Shown: one piece after another, positions 4,111 to 46,963 of the stretch
Numbering within the stretch: position 1 is the first letter of the stretch
Layout: each line of letters begins with the position of its first letter
Source of the DNA: a virus
Taxonomy: Duplodnaviria; Caudoviricetes
Reading direction: 5' to 3' (one strand)
DNA length: 50,765 nucleotides
Virus record (IMG/VR): IMGVR_UViG_3300048589_000316
Span: 1-50,765 of that record
Notes under the pieces: generated by a model
What the model was told of the DNA's origin: nothing
The model's database searches: none
What the model saw: the letters and a program-made list of their open reading frames with translations, nothing else
Translations under genes and position numbers: made by a program

Positions 4111-5643
4111 TTAAGCTATTCTGCCACCTATATTCACTTTTGTTTTTATCACCCTTCCTACTGCATTAGAAACTTCCTGTAGAACTGCGTAGCAAAGAAG
4201 ATCAAACATATCATCATGCAAATCATTAGGGAAAGTAATTATTTGGTTAATGAACTCTTGATTCCATCCACCAGAAATAATCTTGACTTTTTCACTTGCG
4301 CATGATGGTTGTGCATACTCCCCTCTGGTGTATTTACCATATGATACATGAAGATCATTAATTCTCATTACATTGAAATTACCGTATTCTTCTGTAGATA
4401 ACATACTCATTAGCCCTGGGCCAGAACTTTTGTACTCGATCCTAATATTACTCCTACTGTCGTAACCTTGTGAATTAAAGTAACCTCTGGAAAATTTCAG
4501 GAACTCATTTAATTCTTTGTAGAATGTAATACAACTTTTAATGTAGATCTTTCCTTTGAATACATAATAGGCCATTACTGCGGATGGATCGTTTTTGGTT
4601 TTTTCTGTAAACGCTCCATCGATTAGGAAATGAACTGGCACTTCTTCTGGGTTAAAAGGTAGTTCACTTTCTTGAACAATCTGAAACCACTCCCTTTGCA
4701 TCATACCACCATCTAATGGTGATGGCCTTTGTTGTTTCAGTGATGCAAATTTGTACGGACTGGTTCTTTTATCTTTTAGGTGGATTTCTGCTGAATGTTT
4801 ATCCTCCCATAATGCTTGATTAAGAACTCTAGGATCTTTAACTTTCAGTGCTTGTTTGATTGGTGGCGCTGCATCTTCTTTTAATGCCGGCAAAACAATT
4901 ACTGTCCATTTCTTTGCAACTTCTGCATCGTACTTTGGATTTTTTGGATCAAACAACCGTCCTGCCAAATCATCTTCATGCCATCTGGTAAATAACATCA
5001 ATTCACAACTATCATTGTTTAGTCGGGTTGACCATACTTCGTCGTACCAATCCCAGAGTGTATCTCTATACAAAGGCGAATTAGCCTGTTTCCTGTCTTT
5101 TATTGGATCATCAATAATTCCATATTCCACAGTGTCCGAAGTCAGTCCTGTGCCTACCCCTACGCTTTTATATGATCCCTTGTAACCTACTGTCTCATAG
5201 TATTTAGAGTTCCTTAATTCGTTATCAGCTTCAACACCTGCTTTATTTAGATAAGTTTTAGGAAATACTTCTGCATATCGTTCTGATTCAATTATGTCTT
5301 GAGTGGATCTATTAAACTTGGAACTAACCCCGATCTCATATGATGCACATGCCACTTTTGCTTTTGGTCTTATTCCATGGATAAATGCAGGAGTGATAAT
5401 ACTACTCATTGTAGACTTCCCATGTTGAGGTGGGATAAATATCGCTAACTTTTTGATTTTCTTATCTACCCATAATTGAAGGTAGTCGTACACCAGAATA
5501 TGAAACCATTGCAAAGAATAATCTGGTAACATAGCTTTTGCGAATGCTGCTAGTTTCCTTTTTGCCAATTGGTTTTCAAGTCTCCTAAGATCTTCTAAAA
5601 GTTGGCGCTTATTCTTTGTTTTTGACAACTCCACGAAGTTCAT
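4111..5643 (-). CDS. terL: Terminase large subunit
   Basis: PPQHGKS Walker A, IIDDPIKD Walker B, TRWHEDDLAG, C-terminal FPNDLHDDMFD nuclease motif. Confidence 0.95.
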   Translation of the reverse strand: MNFVELSKTKNKRQLLEDLRRLENQLAKRKLAAFAKAMLPDYSLQWFHILVYDYLQLWVDKKIKKLAIFIPPQHGKSTMSSIITPAFIHGIRPKAKVACASYEIGVSSKFNRSTQDIIESERYAEVFPKTYLNKAGVEADNELRNSKYYETVGYKGSYKSVGVGTGLTSDTVEYGIIDDPIKDRKQANSPLYRDTLWDWYDEVWSTRLNNDSCELMLFTRWHEDDLAGRLFDPKNPKYDAEVAKKWTVIVLPALKEDAAPPIKQALKVKDPRVLNQALWEDKHSAEIHLKDKRTSPYKFASLKQQRPSPLDGGMMQREWFQIVQESELPFNPEEVPVHFLIDGAFTEKTKNDPSAVMAYYVFKGKIYIKSCITFYKELNEFLKFSRGYFNSQGYDSRSNIRIEYKSSGPGLMSMLSTEEYGNFNVMRINDLHVSYGKYTRGEYAQPSCASEKVKIISGGWNQEFINQIITFPNDLHDDMFDLLCYAVLQEVSNAVGRVIKTKVNIGGRIA

Positions 5644-6016
5644 TAGTTAGGTGTTCCATTTGCTCCAAAATTTCATCATCAGATTTGGACTCTAACATTT
5701 CTTCAATAGGATCTGTTTTCTTAATCTCAAACCTTTCAACGTAACCTCTTGATTTACCTTTGGTTTTTAAGTAGAAAATGATCCCTGTCATATTTCCACC
5801 TTGGATCTCATTGAATAGCTTTCCTTCCACATAGTCCAAAGTTACATTTAGAATATCATCTACCCTGGCTTTGTAATCTTCATCTTCTGTTAACCAACGA
5901 TAGTGAGTTTGCCTTGATAAATTAGCTTTTGCACATGCTGTCGATACGACTCCCAGACTCTTTTCCAGACACTCTATTAGCCGATCCTTTTTAATATTGT
6001 CACTTTTGTCATTCAT
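5609..6016 (-). CDS. terS: Terminase small subunit
   Basis: N-terminal HTH (ACAKANLSRQTHYRW) and IIFYLKTKGKSRGYVER; overlaps the terL start. Confidence 0.85.
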   Translation of the reverse strand: MNDKSDNIKKDRLIECLEKSLGVVSTACAKANLSRQTHYRWLTEDEDYKARVDDILNVTLDYVEGKLFNEIQGGNMTGIIFYLKTKGKSRGYVERFEIKKTDPIEEMLESKSDDEILEQMEHLTNELRGVVKNKE

Positions 6017-6047
6017 CGTTTAAAGTTTTAATGTTAATGCTTTACCC

Positions 6048-6080
6048 AAAAAAAGCCAAATAACGTAATGTTAGATGGCC
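6048..6080 (-). terminator. Putative intrinsic terminator
   Basis: Imperfect GCCAAATAAC/GTTAGATGGC stem with a T-run on the minus strand. Confidence 0.45.
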
Positions 6081-6111
6081 TTAAAGGTAACAATAATTAA
6101 CTACTGTTGGA

Positions 6112-6318
6112 TTACTCGGGAAATAGTAATATTTCTAATTGAATTTGCTCAACTGTCATATCATGCTCATTAGCTAGATATTCCACAAAGTGCCTTAACC
6201 TGTCAATAGCAAAAGTTTGTTTCTGGTCTGGAAGATTAGTAACTAAAACGTTTCCAAATTTAGTCATGATTTTTAGCAACTTCATAACCTCTCTTAATGC
6301 GTTTTCTTTCTCATTCAT
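6112..6318 (-). CDS. Hypothetical protein
   Basis: 68-aa ORF. Confidence 0.55.
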   Translation of the reverse strand: MNEKENALREVMKLLKIMTKFGNVLVTNLPDQKQTFAIDRLRHFVEYLANEHDMTVEQIQLEILLFPE

Positions 6319-6496
6319 CTGCCCACAATTTTTTAGCTATTTCAACCTTTCCTTTCAGATCCTTGACTTTCTTTGAAGCATATGCTAAAGAATATGAATG
6401 ATCTCTTTTGATAGTACCATCCTTCAATCCTTTTTGGTATTCCTGATCGCATTGAGCGACGAATACATTTGGGCAATATTTTCTGTAAATATTCAT
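6311..6496 (-). pseudogene. Internally deleted DUF3560-like protein
   Basis: N-terminus (MNIYRKYCPNVFVAQC) joined directly to C-terminus (GLKDGTIKRDHSYSLAYA...AKKLW) of a longer Bacteroidota phage family recalled from memory. Confidence 0.55.
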
Positions 6497-6530
6497 GATG
6501 TTATTTATAAATGATTAAATTTTTATTTTT

Positions 6531-6583
6531 TGATAACGTAGTATATAATACATTTAAAAACGTATCATATACGGTCGTTATAC
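6531..6583 (+). repeat. attC-like site 1 (minimal, 53 bp)
   Basis: TGATAAC-GTA-GTATATAATACATTT / AAACGTATCATATAC-GGTC-GTTATAC. Confidence 0.75.
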
Positions 6584-6637
6584 ACAAGCGTAGGAAGTGC
6601 AGTACTTCGATTAAACACCTGTGCAAACTTGCCATAA

Positions 6638-6826
6638 TTATTTTTTGCCATCGCTCTTACAATTTTTCAAATTGTTTAGGAATTGCTTTAGTGGTTCTTC
6701 CCAATGTTTAGCAAGTTTTTGAGAGCCGTTTACAGCTTTCACTAAAGTAGTGTCGGGCATTTTTAACTGTCGTTCAATACCTCTAAGGCTTAACGAGTCT
6801 TTGTTTTTTCTTAGCCAATCAATCAT
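6638..6826 (-). CDS. Small HTH DNA-binding protein (cassette 1)
   Basis: LSLRGIERQLKMPDTTLVKAV helix-turn-helix pattern; coupled to the upstream gene. Confidence 0.6.
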   Translation of the reverse strand: MIDWLRKNKDSLSLRGIERQLKMPDTTLVKAVNGSQKLAKHWEEPLKQFLNNLKNCKSDGKK

Positions 6827-7533
6827 TACTTTAAATTTATTTTATTAATAACTTTCCCCATGCTTGTCCAGCTTTTTGTAACCTTACATGAGATGGAAAT
6901 TTCATCTCCTTTATTTCCAAGGCATTTCCCTGTATATTGGTAAATATTATTTTCACAGTCAATTAATCTTTGTGCTGTCCCCCATTCAGTTTCCCATTTT
7001 GATACAATCGTTAATTTTCTGTCAACTTTTACACTATCAATAGGAAGGGCAGGATTTGTAGTGTTTTCATTTTCTTCTAAAATTAAAATTTTAGATAATT
7101 CCCCGTATTCTTTAAGTTCTTCAGATAACATTTTGCTTTTAACATTCATATTGTTATAAGCCCAAAATAAATATTTAGGGTCAATGTCAAAAACTTCCGC
7201 TGCTGTTTTACCTGAATATTTACCAAAAGGAAAAGTATTGCTTTGTCTACGTGAACCACACAATTCATCTATTTCTATTTCAATTTGATACCTACCTATT
7301 TTTTTTCGAGCTTTCAAAATAGCTTCATCCAAATCAATAGCCAAATTCCCTAAATACGTGTCTTTTGCATATTTATTAAAAACCTTTGGGACAGAATACA
7401 TAACAAACATAACATCTTTAGACCCTTCTGATTGTCCTGATGTTATTAAAAATCTGCGGGTTTCGTGGATTTCACCTTTTAATATTTCTGTTAAATCTAT
7501 GTTACTTTCTTTGAAATTCGATAAAGTTGTCAT
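6826..7533 (-). CDS. Hypothetical protein with DUF3820/ExoX-C-like motif and possible C-terminal OB fold (cassette 1)
   Basis: FPFGKYSGK...DPKYLFWA motif; ATG at 7533 preferred over TTG 7557, which abuts the -7 box. Confidence 0.6.
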   Translation of the reverse strand: MTTLSNFKESNIDLTEILKGEIHETRRFLITSGQSEGSKDVMFVMYSVPKVFNKYAKDTYLGNLAIDLDEAILKARKKIGRYQIEIEIDELCGSRRQSNTFPFGKYSGKTAAEVFDIDPKYLFWAYNNMNVKSKMLSEELKEYGELSKILILEENENTTNPALPIDSVKVDRKLTIVSKWETEWGTAQRLIDCENNIYQYTGKCLGNKGDEISISCKVTKSWTSMGKVINKINLK

Positions 7534-7561
7534 AATCTTAGTTTTTCCGTTAAACAATATC

Positions 7562-7591
7562 CAAATATAAGGATAATATATTTAATATCCT
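7562..7591 (-). promoter_or_regulatory. Cassette-internal promoter (TATATTTG) with AGGATA..TATCCT inverted repeat
   Basis: Canonical Bacteroidota -7 box at 7562-7569; palindrome at 7570-7591. Confidence 0.55.
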
Positions 7592-7677
7592 AATATAAAG
7601 ATAAAAAAATAACCCCTCCCAAAAAAAATAATTATTACTTTCGTGTTTCAAATGAATGTAAGTGTTTAAACGCCAGT

Positions 7678-7771
7678 GTATAACAACGCATAAAAATAAA
7701 AGCCTTTGGTAAGGTAGTATTTCAAATCAGCGTTGTAGTGTCGGCTTCAATTCTTATGCAAACCGTTGTGC
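7678..7771 (+). repeat. attC-like site 2
   Basis: GTATAAC-AAC-GCATAAAAATAAAAGCC / GGCTTCAATTCTTATGC-AAACC-GTTGTGC. Confidence 0.8.
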
Positions 7772-7786
7772 TTCATTAAAACGAAA

Positions 7787-8237
7787 GCACAACATGCAAT
7801 ATAAAACATGCTGGCTTCCGTTCTTTTAATGAAGTTTGTGCTATTGGGAAGGAAAATAATAATGCCTCCCAACGCTCAACTACTTTTCAATTACAGGCCA
7901 ATTCCAATTCATAGGCTCATCTCCTTTATTCGCAGAAGTTACCCACAAATCCAAATTTCCATCTGTAATCACTTTCAAGTTCACGCACTCATCACTCCAA
8001 ACGGCTGTAATGATTGCAGGTAACTTGTCTTGCGTGTTGCAGCCTCCATTTAAGGTGCTCGCTGCTTCCATTTTGGCTTTATCAGCCTCTGTTGTGTTGT
8101 AAATTACAACTCTACCAATTGTTGGTTTCATAATATAAATGGGTTTTACAAAGCCCGCCCAAGGCATTATTATTTTTGTTCTTCGTAGTTAAGTTCTGTG
8201 CTAAATTCCGCACGTTTCATATTGCTGTCCGTTGTAG
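7787..8237 (+). repeat. attC-like site 3, with a whole gene in its loop
   Basis: GCACAAC-AT-GCAATATAAAACATGC / GCACGTTTCATATTGC-TGTCC-GTTGTAG; arms about 400 bp apart. Confidence 0.7.
7880..8167 (-). CDS. Conserved small phage hypothetical protein (true start probably MKPTIGRVV)
   Basis: KPTIGRVV..PAIITAVW..VNLKV..WNWP pattern typical of small phage proteins. Confidence 0.7.
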   Translation of the reverse strand: MPWAGFVKPIYIMKPTIGRVVIYNTTEADKAKMEAASTLNGGCNTQDKLPAIITAVWSDECVNLKVITDGNLDLWVTSANKGDEPMNWNWPVIEK

Positions 8238-8248
8238 TGCATTAAAAA

Positions 8249-8566
8249 CTATTTCTTTAATGCTCGGTCTGTATAATCTCGCTGTACAAAGTTTCCGCAT
8301 TTCCAACAGGTTTTATTACCGTCTTTAGGTTTAGTACTTTTGCCAGTATCATAGCCACAGCGAGTGCAAGGCTTATACCAAATGTCAAAGTCACCTAACA
8401 CACGTTTGGGTTTGTTTTTACTGTGTACAACAACAGGTATAGCAAATAATTTTACTATATCCTGTGCCAAAGCCTCAAACTTATCTGTAAAAATCGCATC
8501 ATTAAAATTATCTACCTCACTTTTATAGGCGTGTAATAATTCCATTATGTATTCATTTTTTGCCAT
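8249..8566 (-). CDS. Hypothetical Zn-ribbon protein that reads through an attC arm
   Basis: CTRC...CWKC motifs; VKLFAIPVV is encoded by the site-4 left arm. Confidence 0.65.
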   Translation of the reverse strand: MAKNEYIMELLHAYKSEVDNFNDAIFTDKFEALAQDIVKLFAIPVVVHSKNKPKRVLGDFDIWYKPCTRCGYDTGKSTKPKDGNKTCWKCGNFVQRDYTDRALKK

Positions 8567-8628
8567 TGTTTCTATTTTTTAGTTTTTAAATACGTAAAAT
8601 TACATTGCCATACCCACGTCCGTTACCT
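8425..8628 (+). repeat. attC-like site 4, containing the 5' end of a gene
   Basis: GTACAAC-AACA-GGTATAGCAAATAATTTTAC / GTAAAATTACATTGCCATACC..GTTACCT. Confidence 0.7.
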
Positions 8629-8634
8629 GCAATA

Positions 8635-9360
8635 CTACGTTAGTACTCTTTTACAGGCAGTTTCGTAATATTCAGGGTCTTGCTCCATCATAACAAAGTT
8701 TCTACCAAGATTTTTTGCTCCTAATCCTGTAGTCCCGCTTCCGCAAGTATTATCAAGTATCAAATCTCCTTCATTGGTGTAGGTTTTAATCATATACTCA
8801 ATTAAAGCTAATGGTTTTTGCGTTGGGTGTAACTTCCCTTCTCGTTCAGCAGTAACAAAATACTGTACGCTTCTTGGATTTCTCAATCCTGTTTTATTCT
8901 CTATTAAATTACCATTACCTATCTTACCAACTGCTTCTATTTCAGTTCTTTTTTCCTTGCCTTTATTATATGGTTTACCCTTTGTTTTTTGTGAGTTGTA
9001 AGTTGGTTTCTTTTTGTAAAACACCATAATATCTTCGTGTGCTATTAAAGGCATTTGTTTAGCAAAAAGAAAGTTGGTAGCCTTAGACTTTTCCCATATC
9101 CAATCATATCTATACATTTTCACATTACTTGTTCGTAAAAAAGAACTGAAAGGCTCTCTTCCAAAAAGAACTATTGCACCATTATCTTTAATTACTCTCT
9201 CGTATTCACTCCACAACTCATCAAAAGGTATTATCGTATCCCATTTACATTTTGTAGTTCCGTATGGTAAATCGCAAAAAATCATATCAATACTTTTGTC
9301 ATCTACATATTTCGGCATCAATTCAAGGCAATCCCCTTTATATATTTCGTTTATTTTCAT
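8635..9360 (-). CDS. N4/N6 DNA methyltransferase, beta class (cassette 4)
   Basis: GDCLE, DLPY motif IV, HPTQKP, LDNTCGSGTT motif I. Confidence 0.92.
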   Translation of the reverse strand: MKINEIYKGDCLELMPKYVDDKSIDMIFCDLPYGTTKCKWDTIIPFDELWSEYERVIKDNGAIVLFGREPFSSFLRTSNVKMYRYDWIWEKSKATNFLFAKQMPLIAHEDIMVFYKKKPTYNSQKTKGKPYNKGKEKRTEIEAVGKIGNGNLIENKTGLRNPRSVQYFVTAEREGKLHPTQKPLALIEYMIKTYTNEGDLILDNTCGSGTTGLGAKNLGRNFVMMEQDPEYYETACKRVLT

Positions 9361-9388
9361 AATTCAGTTATTTAGATGTGTTGTCATT

Positions 9389-9488
9389 TGCTAACAAAGT
9401 GTATGGCAAATAGCTTCTGTAGATGGTCAATCCGCAATCGCTCCTATCGGGCTTTTTGCTACTAGACCACACATCAGAGCCGTTATGC
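9389..9488 (+). repeat. attC-like site 5 (degenerate)
   Basis: TGCTAAC-AAA-GTGTATGGCAAATAGC / GCTACTAGACCACAC..GTTATGC. Confidence 0.6.
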
Positions 9489-9881
9489 CTCACTTAAAAC
9501 AAAATTCGGCAGGTGTTCCTTCACTTGTTTACAAAGCGATTCTACGTCAATCATTTTCCTGCCAGAATAATCTTGTCTGCTACAAGCATCTTTCAGGATT
9601 GAACCGTTTAAAAAGCCTAATTGATGCGCCCTTAGCACGGCAAATGTTTTTGACATATCACGACCACAAATATCATTATGCAAAACATAAATATCAGTAC
9701 CATAAATACCCAAAGTGTCTAAAGAAAGAAGTTTCATCATTCCTCCCATAACTGAATCAGGGTCGATTTTACTAGATTCAGGTTGTAACATTTCCATAAT
9801 TACATTCATTGCGCCCGGATTCCCGTCGCTCATTTTAACAACTACATTAATTGTGCTGTCTGCTAAGTTAATTCTACTCAT
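9483..9881 (-). CDS. Conserved phage hypothetical protein (cassette 5)
   Basis: MSDGNPGA...LDTLGIYG motif; stop codon lies in the GTTA core of site 5. Confidence 0.7.
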   Translation of the reverse strand: MSRINLADSTINVVVKMSDGNPGAMNVIMEMLQPESSKIDPDSVMGGMMKLLSLDTLGIYGTDIYVLHNDICGRDMSKTFAVLRAHQLGFLNGSILKDACSRQDYSGRKMIDVESLCKQVKEHLPNFVLSEA

Positions 9882-9926
9882 AATTTATAGTTTAATTGAT
9901 TAATAATTCAGTGTATAAAAGCGAAG

Positions 9927-10023
9927 GAATAACAATATATAATCTCAATAAGCACCGTTGGCGGTTCGTACTATGGGCAAAGGTCAGGTAAGGTGCTTAC
10001 AGCGGTTATACCAAGCGTTATTT
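9927..10023 (+). repeat. attC-like site 6
   Basis: GAATAAC..TATAATCTCAATAAGCACC / GGTGCTTACAGCGGTTATA-CCAAGC-GTTATTT. Confidence 0.7.
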
Positions 10024-10599
10024 AAGTCCAAAATGTTCATCGACTATATTATCAAATAATGACTTTTGTTCTGGCACAGGAGTCAAGCATTTATATTCAT
10101 CAATAAAAAACTTATCCTTTGTCATTCCTGCCCTTTTTCCTTTTTTGGTGTGTACATCATATGTGTACTCTGGAAGTTCGATAAATTTGTCCTTATGCTT
10201 TTCTAAGGACTTTTCAATTTCTTCATCTGTAATACCGATCTTGTGATCGTAAACTAAACATTGAAGATGATCAGAATCCCTGCTCTTGATTGCTCTGCAA
10301 AGGATCAAAACTGCCTTGGAAAGAAATATCCTTCCTTTCAATTTGTTCTTTGCCTTTGGGTTGTTGACTTCCCGAAAACCTTCAAATAATGCATGGATTT
10401 CTGTAGATATAATTCCGTCACAATCTTCTGCAGCAATGGTGATCAATCGCTTCCAAACGTAATTGTGATAATTTGAAGCGTATAGTTCATGAGCAAAGTA
10501 CCCTGCTAATTTTTCGTCGCTTCTTCTAATTGATTTTTGTAGGGCACTTGCTACGTCTAATAAATCATACCCTCGAACTGTTCTTAAATTCCAACTCAT
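10018..10599 (-). CDS. Stand-alone MgsA/RarA C-terminal-like domain protein (no ATPase domain)
   Basis: SALQKSIRRSD...WKRLITIAAED...DVHT..G; no Walker A motif. Confidence 0.7.
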   Translation of the reverse strand: MSWNLRTVRGYDLLDVASALQKSIRRSDEKLAGYFAHELYASNYHNYVWKRLITIAAEDCDGIISTEIHALFEGFREVNNPKAKNKLKGRIFLSKAVLILCRAIKSRDSDHLQCLVYDHKIGITDEEIEKSLEKHKDKFIELPEYTYDVHTKKGKRAGMTKDKFFIDEYKCLTPVPEQKSLFDNIVDEHFGLK

Positions 10600-14072: not shown

Positions 14073-14543
14073 TTAGTTTTTTATTATTAACTCAACTCTT
14101 AATTTAATTGCATGGTTAACCTTTTCTACAATAGTTTTGGTGCCCATATTTTCATTACATTTTTCATGTGCTAAAACTTTATTGGAAAGTTTCTCACTAC
14201 CACCTGCTGTTAATGGGTCAAGATGTTCAACGGTAATATCATCATCCATTAATTGACCACAATAGAAACAAGCCCATCCGTCACGTTTGATCAGGTTTCT
14301 TCGATCCTTTGCATAACTGCTTTTTCTCTTAGTTCTGACCGGCCTACCATCCCATGGTATATTTCTCCAAAAACAATTGATCGCTCTTTCAGTGTACTTG
14401 TTTCCACATTTTCCTGATTTATAAAGCACTCCAACCTCTAAACCTTTAAACCTAAGTTCTTCATGCTCATTGGTAACTGGAAGTATTTCTGCACCTCGAT
14501 CTGATAGCCACTTTTCTAAAACATCTGTTTTCGGAATCTTCAT
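14073..14543 (-). CDS. HNH endonuclease
   Basis: CFYCG..TVEHLDP...GG...N..LAHEKCN. Confidence 0.85.
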   Translation of the reverse strand: MKIPKTDVLEKWLSDRGAEILPVTNEHEELRFKGLEVGVLYKSGKCGNKYTERAINCFWRNIPWDGRPVRTKRKSSYAKDRRNLIKRDGWACFYCGQLMDDDITVEHLDPLTAGGSEKLSNKVLAHEKCNENMGTKTIVEKVNHAIKLRVELIIKN

Positions 14544-46798: not shown

Positions 46799-46963
46799 CT
46801 ATATTCCAGAATGGATCTCACAAAGTAATGCAAGTTCGGGCAACATTTCATCAAACTTGGCTTTCATTTCAGTTATCTGACTAGGATCTGACCCAAAGTT
46901 ATAAGCATAGTTCAAATCTTCATTGAAGTCAAGCAACTTTTTTATAAGTTCGTCGGTATTCAT
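46799..46963 (-). CDS. Small hypothetical protein (54 aa)
   Basis: MNTDELIKKLLDF...; directly after a repeated promoter and leader. Confidence 0.5.
   Translation of the reverse strand: MNTDELIKKLLDFNEDLNYAYNFGSDPSQITEMKAKFDEMLPELALLCEIHSGI

Follow-up and report, generated by a model that had tools for sequence, protein, structure and literature searches.

Results

Organization of slots A and B

The window (the whole stretch of DNA that was analysed, 50,765 nt) is a complete phage genome and carries two gene-sized units, which we designate slot A and slot B. The original prediction placed at their ends perfect inverted repeats of 13 bp (6634–6646 and 7623–7635) and 15 bp (7853–7867 and 8162–8176), and both are present exactly as described. 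All features discussed below are on the minus strand (−), the 5′ parts of each slot having the higher coordinates.

Slot A encloses two minus-strand genes, one at 6826–7533 that encodes a 235-aa protein with an ExoX-like C-terminal domain, and one at 6638–6826 that encodes a 62-aa protein with a weak HTH match and has its stop codon within the 3′ arm. The inner 5′ arm, AAAAAATAATTAT (7623–7635), and the inner 3′ arm, ATAATTATTTTTT (6634–6646), form the perfect 13-bp inverted repeat. This 5′ arm is a homologue of the 15-bp arm of locus L010 and of the 17-bp arm of the elements that we refer to as C-type, relative to which slot A has mirrored indels of 2 nt and 4 nt in both arms. The 3′ inner motif, GCCATCGCTC (6647–6656; GAGCGATGGC on the coding strand), fits the 3′ motif of the family described below, and the 5′ inner motif, AACCCCTCCC (7611–7620; GGGAGGGGTT on the coding strand), is the AGGGAGG(G) motif also found after the 5′ arm in 4 of 19 C-type elements, with an ATG 5–8 nt further on. 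Beyond the inner arms, the outer stem pairs GTTGTTATACACTGGCGT (7670–7687) with ACGCTTGTGTATAACGAC (6574–6591), and the same stem class, with its constant TGGCG/CGCTTG part, is found at L064, L111 and L167. The 5′ spacer (7636–7669) is homologous to the spacers of the compact allele L022 and of the C-type scaffold, and the 3′ spacer (6592–6633) to the C-type 3′ spacers, matching their pattern GG.AA....GCACA....TTAATCGAAG. The outer pair of copy A, TTAAACAC (6611–6618) and GTGTTTAA (7662–7669), is situated within these two spacers.

Between the 5′ arm of slot A and its gene there is a promoter-like box (7561–7593), a diverged copy of a recurrent phage box of which the same type occurs upstream of at least six other genes in the window. 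A promoter consensus scan returned 14 promoter-like sites where 19.9 were expected. An extended terminal repeat of copy A was considered and dropped; its end-to-end local alignment scores 29 against 16.5 ± 2.9 for shuffled sequence, which is not significant alone because the 13-mer by itself already scores 26. The extended repeat gained meaning only through comparison with relatives. At L002, a 59% identical homologue of the 235-aa protein has none of the slot frame around its gene.

Slot B contains a single gene (7880–8131) for an 83-aa protein of PHROG 2293 (function not assigned), which is 100% identical in the close relatives L003–L005. Its inner arms, AGGCATTATTATTTT (5′; 8162–8176) and AAAATAATAATGCCT (3′; 7853–7867), form the perfect 15-bp inverted repeat, which is kept in two diverged homologues (74% and 69%) and shows a T.A to C.G double change in L012. 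The 3′ inner motif, CCCAACGCTC (7868–7877; GAGCGTTGGG on the coding strand), agrees with the 3′ motif of the family, and the 5′ inner region, which extends up to the start codon (8132–8161), includes AAGCCCGCCC (GGGCGGGCTT) at 8151–8160. The original prediction had the motifs abutting the repeats; the motifs are there, but the right-hand ones are not flush, lying 2 nt (A) and 1 nt (B) away. A 57-nt stretch that includes the 5′ arm (8126–8182) is 84% identical to a stretch of L009 just upstream of an unrelated gene, and no inverted repeat partner is found there. The pattern TTGGGMGGGSTT-N11-TTTATATTA matched in viral contigs only three near-identical relatives and L009. A sigma-70-like or Bacteroidetes-type promoter in the 5′ region was rejected, as the start codon directly follows the would-be −10.

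The outer stem of slot B pairs GCAATATGAAACGTGC (coding strand; 8210–8225) with GCATGTTTTATATTGC (7796–7811). Its 5′ spacer, X (8177–8209), which is kept in L013 and L024, repeats part of the 3′ spacer, X′ (7812–7852), in direct orientation, as seen in the pair TAGCACAGAACTT / TAGCACAAACTT. The slot is closed by a small boundary hairpin, GTTGTGCTT-TCGTTTTAATG-AAGCACAAC (7765–7793), which is the cassette-boundary hairpin of the first family and recurs in L039, L058, L068, L100 and L133 with a constant loop and compensatory stem changes. Identity to L003 stops at 7763, directly past this hairpin. The units are nested within larger hairpin-type cassette boundaries, as had been proposed.

Recurrence of the slot architecture

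Within the window alone the two inverted repeats are a marginal oddity and constitute weak evidence. It has four perfect inverted repeats of at least 13 bp with arms 100–1500 nt apart, where 100 dinucleotide shuffles give 2.2 ± 1.6, and two of at least 15 bp, where shuffled sequence gives 0.14. The inner 10-mers match exactly only at copies A and B, and with up to one mismatch they show no enrichment in the window (5 versus 2.7 expected, and 6 versus 3.5).

The picture is different when other loci are considered. Among all the loci fetched, from phage, metagenome and MAG contigs, there are 52 distinct elements with 26 distinct perfect arm sequences of 13–24 bp, so that the two copies belong to a genuine recurrent family. 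Searches that left out the arms recover them: a search with the outer flanks only finds a perfect 14–17 bp inverted repeat at the scaffold edges in 6 of 6 cargo-bearing alleles, and one with the 3′ inner motif only finds a perfect 13–21 bp inverted repeat in 23 of 33 distinct viral loci with at least 1 kb of upstream sequence, the other 10 having no perfect repeat of 13 bp or longer. Five of the six evaluable MAG contigs have a perfect inverted repeat and the sixth (L168) has a single G.T. Random pairs of 70-nt windows contain such a repeat in 15 of 20000 cases. A control anchored on A-runs gives 35 of 1329 sites, but it is not a clean background because all 27 of its distinct sites with an inverted repeat of at least 14 nt are themselves family elements, either already found (on their own or the opposite strand) or further ones. 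The recurrence of the layout in other loci, well above background, shows it to be non-random.

A full slot architecture is also present around gene 0038 of the cultured Polaribacter phage P12002L, and the nearest cultured phage matches are Flavobacteriia phages. A DNA search of cultured phages returned nothing beyond similarity to cargo or methylases. Rfam gave nothing relevant for 5500–10500 of the window at E ≤ 1 and no match at gathering score for five loci, and a titles-level scan of the literature found no published description of a hairpin-framed slot. Copies A and B are best read as two examples of structured accessory-gene slots, a family that is widespread among Flavobacteriia/Bacteroidota phages.

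Read along the coding strand, a slot begins with an outer stem arm of 16–19 bp, a spacer of 30–40 nt and an AT-only inner arm ending in a T-run, followed by a G-rich motif that is either AGGGAGGG with a spacer and ATG, or AG(A/G)GCG containing the start codon. One or two cargo genes follow, and then a second G-rich motif, A(A)AG(A/T)GCG..GGC, and the perfectly complementary inner arm, A-run first, which often supplies the stop codon. The frame ends with a direct-repeat copy of the first spacer, the other outer arm and a small boundary hairpin. The 3′ motif, in the form A(A)AG(A/T)GCG..GG(C), is present in all 19 distinct C-type elements; in 16 of these the ORF starts no more than 15 nt from the 5′ arm, and in 10 it reads into or through the 3′ arm, with the stop inside the arm in 6 of the 10. 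The arms of copies A and B, although perfect, differ from each other, whereas their G-rich asymmetric inner motifs are conserved in the family, and both observations agree with what had been noted originally.

Direct repeats accompany the inverted ones, as the spacers X and X′ and the G-rich core occur on both sides, with the inverted repeats being the dominant feature. In many elements a core of 15–17 nt, AGAGCG..GGCAAAA, is directly repeated at both inner edges, and L100 has a private variant, AGAGCGAAGG, at both edges; the core repeat is absent at the left edge in 4 of 19 C-type elements. In 5 of 5 alleles displayed, the two arms are abutted by different sequences, and direct repeats lie 9–14 nt away.

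Exchange of cargo within the frame

The cargo is variable. The 19 C-type elements fall into 9 cargo clusters, and cargo across the family consists mostly of DNA-modifying enzymes, the families represented including N6_N4 methylase, Dam, PAPS_reduct and DUF7448, with ORFans as well. The cargo of L010 was considered as an HNH nuclease, an assignment that Pfam does not support, and the phage's own HNH gene (14073–14543) has no slot frame around it. Alternative-cargo alleles at the same site do exist. L068 and L058 have flanks that are 98% and 97% identical around unrelated cargo, and L113 and L114 have flanks that are 93% and 92% identical, again around unrelated cargo, whereas L113 and L064 share cargo that is 90% identical within flanks of just 79% and 69% identity. 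At the site of slot B, a metagenome contig has 342 other letters in place of the window's sequence, and L012 has a methylase gene there. Because identical arms and 97–98% identical scaffolds enclose unrelated genes, we conclude that the arms belong to the slot and that cargo is swapped inside it. The arms are not brought by each cargo, and a description of the units as insertion elements has only partial support.

Indels and replacements between close relatives map to the frames (the window versus L003–L005, L068 versus L058, and L113 versus L114), and where cargo has been exchanged between phages the breakpoints lie at the G-rich motifs and A/T-runs. Around copy A, the segment exchanged between the window and L003–L005 is 6581–7762 and not 6634–7635, these relatives parting from the window sequence at 6580/6581, within the outer 3′ arm of slot A. 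In four sequencing runs, seen as contigs only and in small shares, such that rare excision or inversion would be invisible, we find replacement and skip joints with branching near the arms.

An empty allele with the repeats adjacent was not found. A search for an empty hairpin with arms no more than 30 nt apart gave 0 matches in viral contigs, and there are no adjacent-arm alleles among 118 metagenome loci, in which the smallest spacing is 340 nt. There are compact alleles (L014, L016, L019, L021=L036 and L022=L032) in which the outer stem arms are exactly 78 nt apart; these are without cargo and without both inner arms. The hairpin-framed unit resembles a natural plug-in site for accessory genes.

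Pairing, covariation and folding

The arms stay perfectly complementary yet differ between lineages. Of the 19 C-type elements, for which the 5′ arm itself served as search probe, 17 have an exact 3′ arm, a sequence that the probe did not include. The outer stem of slot B is represented by six sequence variants in other loci, among which 6 of 16 positions change in a compensatory manner and two G.T pairs are invariant; the 96 cells of this comparison include 14 G.T/T.G pairs on the coding strand, 0 A.C and 0 other mismatches. In both the arms and the outer stem, complementarity is kept by compensatory change, as would be expected of a long-range mRNA stem. At 10 positions outside the arms, pairs are Watson-Crick in only 110 of 500 cells, and the arms end abruptly.

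There is also an asymmetry between strands. Flank duplexes are more stable in the sense than in the antisense strand in 14 of 19 elements (means of −39.8 and −33.3 kcal/mol respectively, with −29.9 for shuffled sequence), the sense strand being no more stable in the other 5. The duplexes of the inner arms alone come to −7.1 kcal/mol for A and −16.2 kcal/mol for B. When the 506-nt B region is modelled, the probability is approximately 1.5% for the arm pairs and approximately 11% for the outer stem; arm pairing is absent from the minimum-free-energy fold of this region, and a fold in which arms and outer stem are enforced lies 5.2 kcal/mol above the minimum.

Inside one arm lineage the arm is better conserved than the adjoining scaffold. 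L012 and L039, for example, have identical arms and spacers that differ by roughly a fifth when compared by eye. This pattern suggests that the arm sequence itself, and not its pairing alone, may be read by something.

Recombination genes of the phage

The complete 50.8-kb phage genome has no match to PF00589, against which positive controls matched, and no integrase, resolvase, Y1 (HUH) transposase, reverse transcriptase or RNase III was found in it. The 19 Pfam families matched by 70 ORFs include no recombinase and no transposase. The suggested co-occurrence with HUH, tyrosine recombinase or RT genes is therefore not seen in this genome. The phage does encode a PDDEXK-type nuclease (DUF3799), and its gene content (an SPP1-type portal and others) does not look T4-like.

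Discussion

Because of the recurrence of the frame and the covariation of its stems, we tentatively favour, at somewhat short of even confidence, a model in which each unit is an accessory-gene slot, with cargo exchanged by recombination within the scaffold and with the inverted repeats preserved through folding of the sense strand, most likely as mRNA. The exchange of cargo would rest on general recombination inside the frame, homologous or microhomology-based, of the sort that has been proposed for the PeSL cassettes of T4-type phages, and the DUF3799 nuclease could belong to such a recombination system. The inverted repeats would be maintained because the sense strand folds, the 3′ arm pairing with the AU-rich stretch directly preceding the start codon, so that each cargo message may close into a stem-loop of its own, with translation of the inserted gene insulated, processed or gated separately from the genes on either side. 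The mRNA part of this model is weakened by the predicted thermodynamic weakness of the arms and by the promoter-like box inside the frame of copy A, as a transcript starting between the 5′ arm and the gene would be without that arm. The arms are also near-perfect, with hardly any G.U, which is stricter than is typical of RNA stems and could indicate copying or some other DNA-level process.

A different origin of the units is suggested by this last point. Genes may be inserted site-specifically into hairpins on folded single-stranded DNA by a host-encoded or unrecognised enzyme, the AT arms being the split stem of a target hairpin and the G-rich motif the crossover core. The direct repetition of the core at the inner edges, as expected after Campbell-type insertion and with the L100 variant at both edges, the strand-specific G.T pairs, which would fit a folded DNA strand too, and the location of slots in larger hairpin sites with an attC-like layout all agree with this, as do the near-universal perfection of the arms, which suits DNA-level copying or proof-reading, and the attC sites reported in P12002L (PMC9892861), itself a slot carrier. 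We nevertheless consider such insertion possible but unlikely, given the lack of an integrase, resolvase, Y1 transposase or reverse transcriptase in the complete genome, the failure to find an adjacent-arm allele, the 26 arm versions with nothing resembling conserved R or L boxes, the 4 of 19 C-type elements that lack the left-edge core repeat, and the different boundaries of the piece exchanged in the window's close relatives. With no empty allele found, no recombinase and arms owned by the slot, structure-guided loading is no more than a possible mechanism. One form of it, loading into the terminal loop of attC-like hairpins with the AT arms and G-rich core as scars or substrates, would need no element-encoded integrase, and we regard it as doubtful.

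The conservation of arms over scaffold within a lineage, as in L012 and L039, would also be accounted for if the arms were double-stranded sites for a protein, such as a promoter or operator that occurs in both orientations for convergent transcription or looping around the cargo, and matching because the same reader must fit both. The arms are too AT-rich for a strong helix, and their position immediately ahead of the start codon is one that a promoter or initiation region would occupy. Against this, two unlike arm pairs, of 13 and 15 bp, occur in one phage and the family has 26 arm sequences, no regulator emerged as a candidate, covariation of pairing is clear in the outer stem, and the mirrored indels together with the lone G.T exception at L168 fit pairing better than independent sites; we think a protein-site origin improbable. 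Decidedly improbable, in our view, is that the inverted repeats are functionless relics of an ancestral hairpin, perfected by templated (quasipalindrome-type) correction, and that only flank homology matters. In its favour are the perfect arms with abrupt ends (110 of 500 cells Watson-Crick beyond them) and the fact that flank homology alone explains cargo exchange; however, perfect arms in at least 26 diverged lineages at spacings of 250–2650 nt are hard to explain without selection, no adjacent-arm state was found, and templated correction is known mainly for closely spaced repeats. The geometry of perfect inverted repeats flanking a few hundred to about a thousand bases also fits an inverton, in which a recombinase flips the gene between them, yet the main ORF is on the scaffold sense strand in 19 of 19 distinct C-type elements (0 of 19 inverted), the slot B cargo has the same orientation in the window, L003–L005, L013/L015 and L012, the contigs of the four sequencing runs have no strand-change joints, and the genome has no invertase, all of which makes inversion very improbable. 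Finally, chance matches of low-complexity AT-rich sequence at gene ends would suffice for the window's 13-bp repeat, which is at chance level (4 versus 2.2 expected) and to which the extended alignment of copy A adds little, but such an origin is already refuted, with next to no probability left to it, by the recurrence of the layout, with varying arms and cargo, in dozens of independent contigs, compared with 15 in 20000 for the background.

If the slot model with exchange inside a folded frame is correct, Flavobacteriia-type phages carry a standardised, structured landing pad for swapped counter-defence genes such as DNA methyltransferases and other DNA-modification enzymes, with the frame, often including start and stop codons, staying in place while the cargo turns over. 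This would be a concrete, sequence-defined mechanism of accessory-gene turnover in marine and freshwater phages, and would tie the reported attC-like sites of virulent phages to a larger architecture. P12002L provides a tractable system for testing how gene cassettes come to be linked with structured sites and whether inserted genes are controlled by 5′–3′ closure of bacterial or phage mRNAs, and the frame is a candidate natural insertion site for phage engineering. Were structure-guided loading to be true instead, slots would be a living example of how promoterless cassettes join structured recombination sites, the still unsolved question of how integron cassettes originate.

Comparison with known systems

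Slots resemble transposons and MITEs with terminal inverted repeats in having perfect repeats at both ends of a gene-sized segment, and differ from them in that no transposase was found, there are 26 kinds of repeat, there is no abutting target duplication, and the cargo changes while the repeats stay. Morons of temperate phages are independent accessory genes between essential genes, whose presence varies among relatives; their defining features are a promoter and terminator of their own, and no conserved frame or inverted repeats surround them. Slots share with morons the accessory genes and variable presence, but have both a conserved frame and enclosing repeats.

Long-range pairing of 5′ and 3′ RNA segments is familiar from the fold-back inhibition of hok mRNA, the long-distance interactions of MS2 RNA and the RNase III stems flanking 16S and 23S rRNA. 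In slots, as judged from sequence, a 3′ segment would likewise pair with the start-codon or 5′ region across the coding region, and it is subject to compensatory change. Those systems concern single conserved genes, whereas slots are an exchangeable frame with AT-only, near-perfect stems.

Like integron cassettes, slots are promoterless single-gene units with variable cargo, often DNA methyltransferases, in which the boundary fold is conserved over sequence and there is strand asymmetry. An attC site has an inverse core site besides GTTRRRY. CALINs, clusters of attC sites without an integrase, have been reported in virulent phages such as P12002L, one attC of which was recombined by IntI1 in E. 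coli (Qi et al. 2023, PMC9892861). In an attC, a lone imperfect hairpin follows the ORF and has conserved core sites (GTTRRRY; PMC9892861), whereas slots have AT-only perfect arms on both sides with the gene in the loop. The outer and boundary hairpins of slots resemble the attC core only loosely (GTTGTGC / ..ACAAC). Of the features that mark an integron, IntI is lacking in the phage, and alternative cargo at one site is found in the slots.

A close parallel is with the PeSL (promoter-early stem-loop) cassettes of T4-type phages (Arbiol et al. 2010, PMC2839356). These are short conserved non-coding sequences with an AT-rich part and a G-rich structured part, located on either side of non-essential ORFans in a plastic region; between close relatives the ORF is inserted, deleted or replaced, crossovers map between promoter, ribosome-binding site and ATG, and no dedicated recombinase is known (PMC2839356). 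Slots share the conserved AT-rich and G-rich flanks, the exchange of ORFs between relatives and the lack of a dedicated recombinase. PeSLs are direct repeats each with its own local stem-loop, and promoter and terminator activity and circles are features of theirs. In slots the gene lies inside nested long-range inverted repeats with lineage-specific arms, in a phage that is not T4-like, and it is the frame that often supplies the start and stop codons.

Copies A and B in the phage genome

Copies A and B represent a conserved frame of nested hairpins in which the cargo is exchangeable. The phage record is a complete virus of 50,765 bp with direct terminal repeats and carries all of its genes on the minus strand, the two copies sitting among small accessory genes directly upstream of the genes for terminase and portal. 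Its closest cultured matches are Flavobacteriia phages (Cellulophaga, Tenacibaculum, Polaribacter, Flavobacterium), with the match limited to one methyltransferase gene. The perfect inverted repeats of copy A (13 bp, 6634–6646 and 7623–7635) and copy B (15 bp, 7853–7867 and 8162–8176) and their inner 10-mers lie where the original prediction placed them; the right-hand motifs, described as flush with the repeats, are separated from them by 2 nt (copy A) and 1 nt (copy B). Judged within the window the case for these copies is weak: perfect inverted repeats of at least 13 bp, spaced 100–1500 nt apart, number 4 against 2.2 expected, those of at least 15 bp number 2 against 0.14, and the 10-mers with one mismatch tolerated are not enriched. 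One of the two longer repeats (perfect over 15 bp, 8940–8954 and 9137–9151, of T-run/A-run type) lies within the methyltransferase gene at 8635–9360; it resembles the arm of the cultured Polaribacter phage P12002L in style, and may have arisen by chance or be a relic.

Tyrosine and serine recombinases, Y1 transposase, reverse transcriptase and RNase III are all absent from the complete phage genome, and the suggested co-occurrence with HUH, tyrosine recombinase or reverse transcriptase genes was not seen there. Among the 19 Pfam families matched by 70 window ORFs there is no transposase or integrase; they include a PDDEXK-type nuclease (DUF3799) and an HNH nuclease encoded elsewhere in the genome. 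The window encodes a TET-associated glycosyltransferase, RadC and ParB-N together with the PDDEXK DUF3799 protein, a set that hints at DNA hypermodification and at recombination functions of the phage's own. A promoter-like box (..ATATAAATATTTATAC TATCTTTAC.. then AACATTTAA..CATCAC..ATG) recurs on the minus strand upstream of at least six window genes (starting at 46963, 45296, 25711, 19109, 16054 and 10599), with a diverged copy upstream of the 235-aa cargo gene of copy A (start 7533, minus).

Exchange and alleles at the two slots

Three viral contigs (L003–L005) match window 7763–10021, including the whole of copy B, at 99.9% identity. In these contigs window 6581–7762, comprising copy A with flanks of 53 and 127 nt, is replaced by 557 nt with a lipoprotein-like gene, and the breakpoints fall directly after a small hairpin (...GCACAACGG) and directly before TAACGACCG. 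Copy B is replaced by 342 other letters in Logan contigs of other metagenomes (joint 7844 to 8202), and such contigs show branching close to the arms of copy A too. Relatives carry about 790 additional bases between the genes at 9483–9881 and 10018–10599 (window 10016–10021 against L003 1321–2111), which on sequence comparison is another insertion/deletion polymorphism of the accessory region. The 61-aa gene at 6311–6496 (minus) is an in-frame, internally deleted remnant of a PHROG 17519 gene of about 213 aa that is full length in L003–L005 (L003 5012–5650), the deletion joining two short similar stretches.

Copy B is enclosed by conserved segments (8210–8225 and 7796–7811) that together form an inverted repeat, and viral contigs were scanned for alleles with 16–20-mers taken from its flanks. 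In compact alleles (L014, L016, L019, L021=L036, L022=L032) exactly 78 nt separates these segments, and both arms and cargo are missing; L011 is an additional compact allele. Every cargo-bearing allele found through these flanks has a perfect AT-rich inverted repeat at the cargo edges. The arm is 15 bp in the window, 15 bp with its register shifted by one in L013 (a 74% homologue), 15 bp with a T.A to C.G double change in the B-like copy of L012, 14 bp of different sequence in L024 and 15 bp in L010. The alternative-cargo alleles that the original prediction called for were found, slots in L012 and L039 holding different genes within an identical 17-bp arm. Arms of window copy A (13 bp), L010 (15 bp) and the L012 type (17 bp) form one homologous series whose members are separated by indels mirrored in both arms.

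Recurrence beyond this phage

Scanning metagenomes with a 5' arm of the 17-bp type gave at least 118 loci, mostly unrelated AT-rich matches. Among the matches listed, 19 have a partner arm 340–1021 nt downstream and 9 further ones look like members broken by contig ends; with the viral loci, the matches listed yield at least 22 elements, at least 19 of them distinct. In many large contigs (L052, L078–L080, L087, L092, L098, L099 and some 15 further metagenome loci) the 20-mer probe also matches a different, strongly conserved sequence context (..CGTAAGCGACG + probe + GAAAACTTGCTTGACGACCCCCTGAAAA) that is not related to the slots of the phages.

Used alone, a probe of the 3' G-rich motif and A-run found 39 distinct viral loci. 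Where at least 1 kb lies upstream, 23 of 33 have a perfect 13–21-bp inverted repeat (20 arm sequences), 3 have 10–11 bp only and 7 have none, as against perfect repeats of at least 13 bp in 15 of 20000 random 70-nt window pairs. The layout recurs above chance, and chance is excluded as its origin. Probing a genome collection with the 3' motif plus arm gave nine MAG contigs, mostly Bacteroidota; the arms are perfect over 15–18 bp in five of the six evaluable contigs, with a single G.T in the other. The observation that arms are perfect yet differ between copies is supported by 26 arm sequences (13–24 bp) over the 52 distinct elements in all fetched loci, and pairing ends abruptly beyond the arms. 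P12002L has the full architecture, with a 16-bp arm, around methyltransferase gene 0038. Several phage contigs (L187, L197, L201) each have two slots whose arm pairs differ. In L213 the left edge bears the usual 3' motif and the right edge a GGAGGGG motif, so the two G-rich motifs can change sides.

Anatomy of the frame

On the coding strand, the outer stem has 16 core pairs and exists in six sequence variants, in which six positions show compensatory changes and two G.T pairs never vary; the 14 cells that are not Watson-Crick are exclusively G.T or T.G, never A.C. The spacer has a direct repeat beyond the cargo, on the opposite side. The inner 5' arm terminates with a T-run, followed by a G-rich motif that is AGGGAGG(G) with ATG 5–8 nt on in 4 of the 19 distinct elements with 17-bp-type arms, and AG(A/G)GCG-like, containing the start codon, in the other 15; in 16 the ORF starts no more than 15 nt from the arm. 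All 19 have the 3' motif A(A)AG(A/T)GCG..GG(C), the opposite-strand reading of SCCAWCGCTC, so that this predicted inner motif is indeed conserved. The inner 3' arm opens with an A-run and is entered or crossed by 10 of the 19 ORFs, 6 of which end at TAA within it. Copy A conforms to the scheme, and its 62-aa gene likewise stops there. Copy A has a second class of outer stem (7670–7687 with 6574–6591), which also occurs in L064, L111 and L167.

The cargo of the 19 elements falls into nine protein clusters; the families identified are N6/N4 DNA methylases, Dam, PAPS-reductase-like proteins and DUF7448. Because unrelated cargo occurs within near-identical frames, and the same cargo within different frames, the frame is stable and the gene exchangeable.

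Boundary hairpins whose loop (TCGTTTTAATG) does not vary and whose stems covary (GTT....../......AAC, then GG) occur at window 7765–7793, 8229–8250 and 7710–7741 and in intergenic regions of P12002L (L160), and half-copies are dispersed through intergenic DNA. They are probably the cassette boundaries of the original prediction and possibly the published attC-like sites. A small ORF beginning within the 3' arm or immediately past it crosses the outer stem arm and boundary hairpin and encodes a conserved hydrophobic peptide (..SMFYIACCAFVLMKHN..; window 7747–7872, minus; L012 7190–7300; L039; L016). In L021 and L022 this DNA is in a different reading frame, so perhaps only the nucleotide sequence is conserved. 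A 28-codon ORF (MAKNNYGKF..., 6565–6651, minus) starts in the copy A 3' motif; its first codons are similar to those of genuine genes in other slots (MAKK/MAKI/MANY, e.g. L026), and it may be the remnant of a displaced gene start.

Discussion

Inversion is not supported, as all elements are oriented alike, and neither is a transposon-like element, as there is no transposase and the ends are variable and persist while the cargo changes. We propose that cargo is swapped by general recombination inside the frame, and that folding of the sense strand is what maintains the inverted repeats. The latter is suggested by the G.T-only asymmetry, by the greater stability of the sense strand in 14 of 19 flank duplexes and by the arms abutting start and stop codons.

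For the folding strand, the mRNA is the natural candidate: its 3' arm would close onto the AU-rich initiation region. Several observations weigh against this: a promoter-like box lies within copy A, the stems are weak in the folding model and the arms are unusually perfect; for these reasons DNA-level explanations, including the structure-guided loading of genes into hairpins originally predicted, are still alive alongside the mRNA fold.

This variant of phage gene-cassette architecture is real, widespread and apparently new to the literature, and the cultured phage allows the slot mechanism to be tested. General recombination within the frame resembles the proposal for PeSL cassettes of T4-type phages (PMC2839356). 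In P12002L, attC-like sites and cassettes carrying methyltransferases have been reported (Qi et al. 2023, PMC9892861), and of the two sites tested there IntI1 recombined one.
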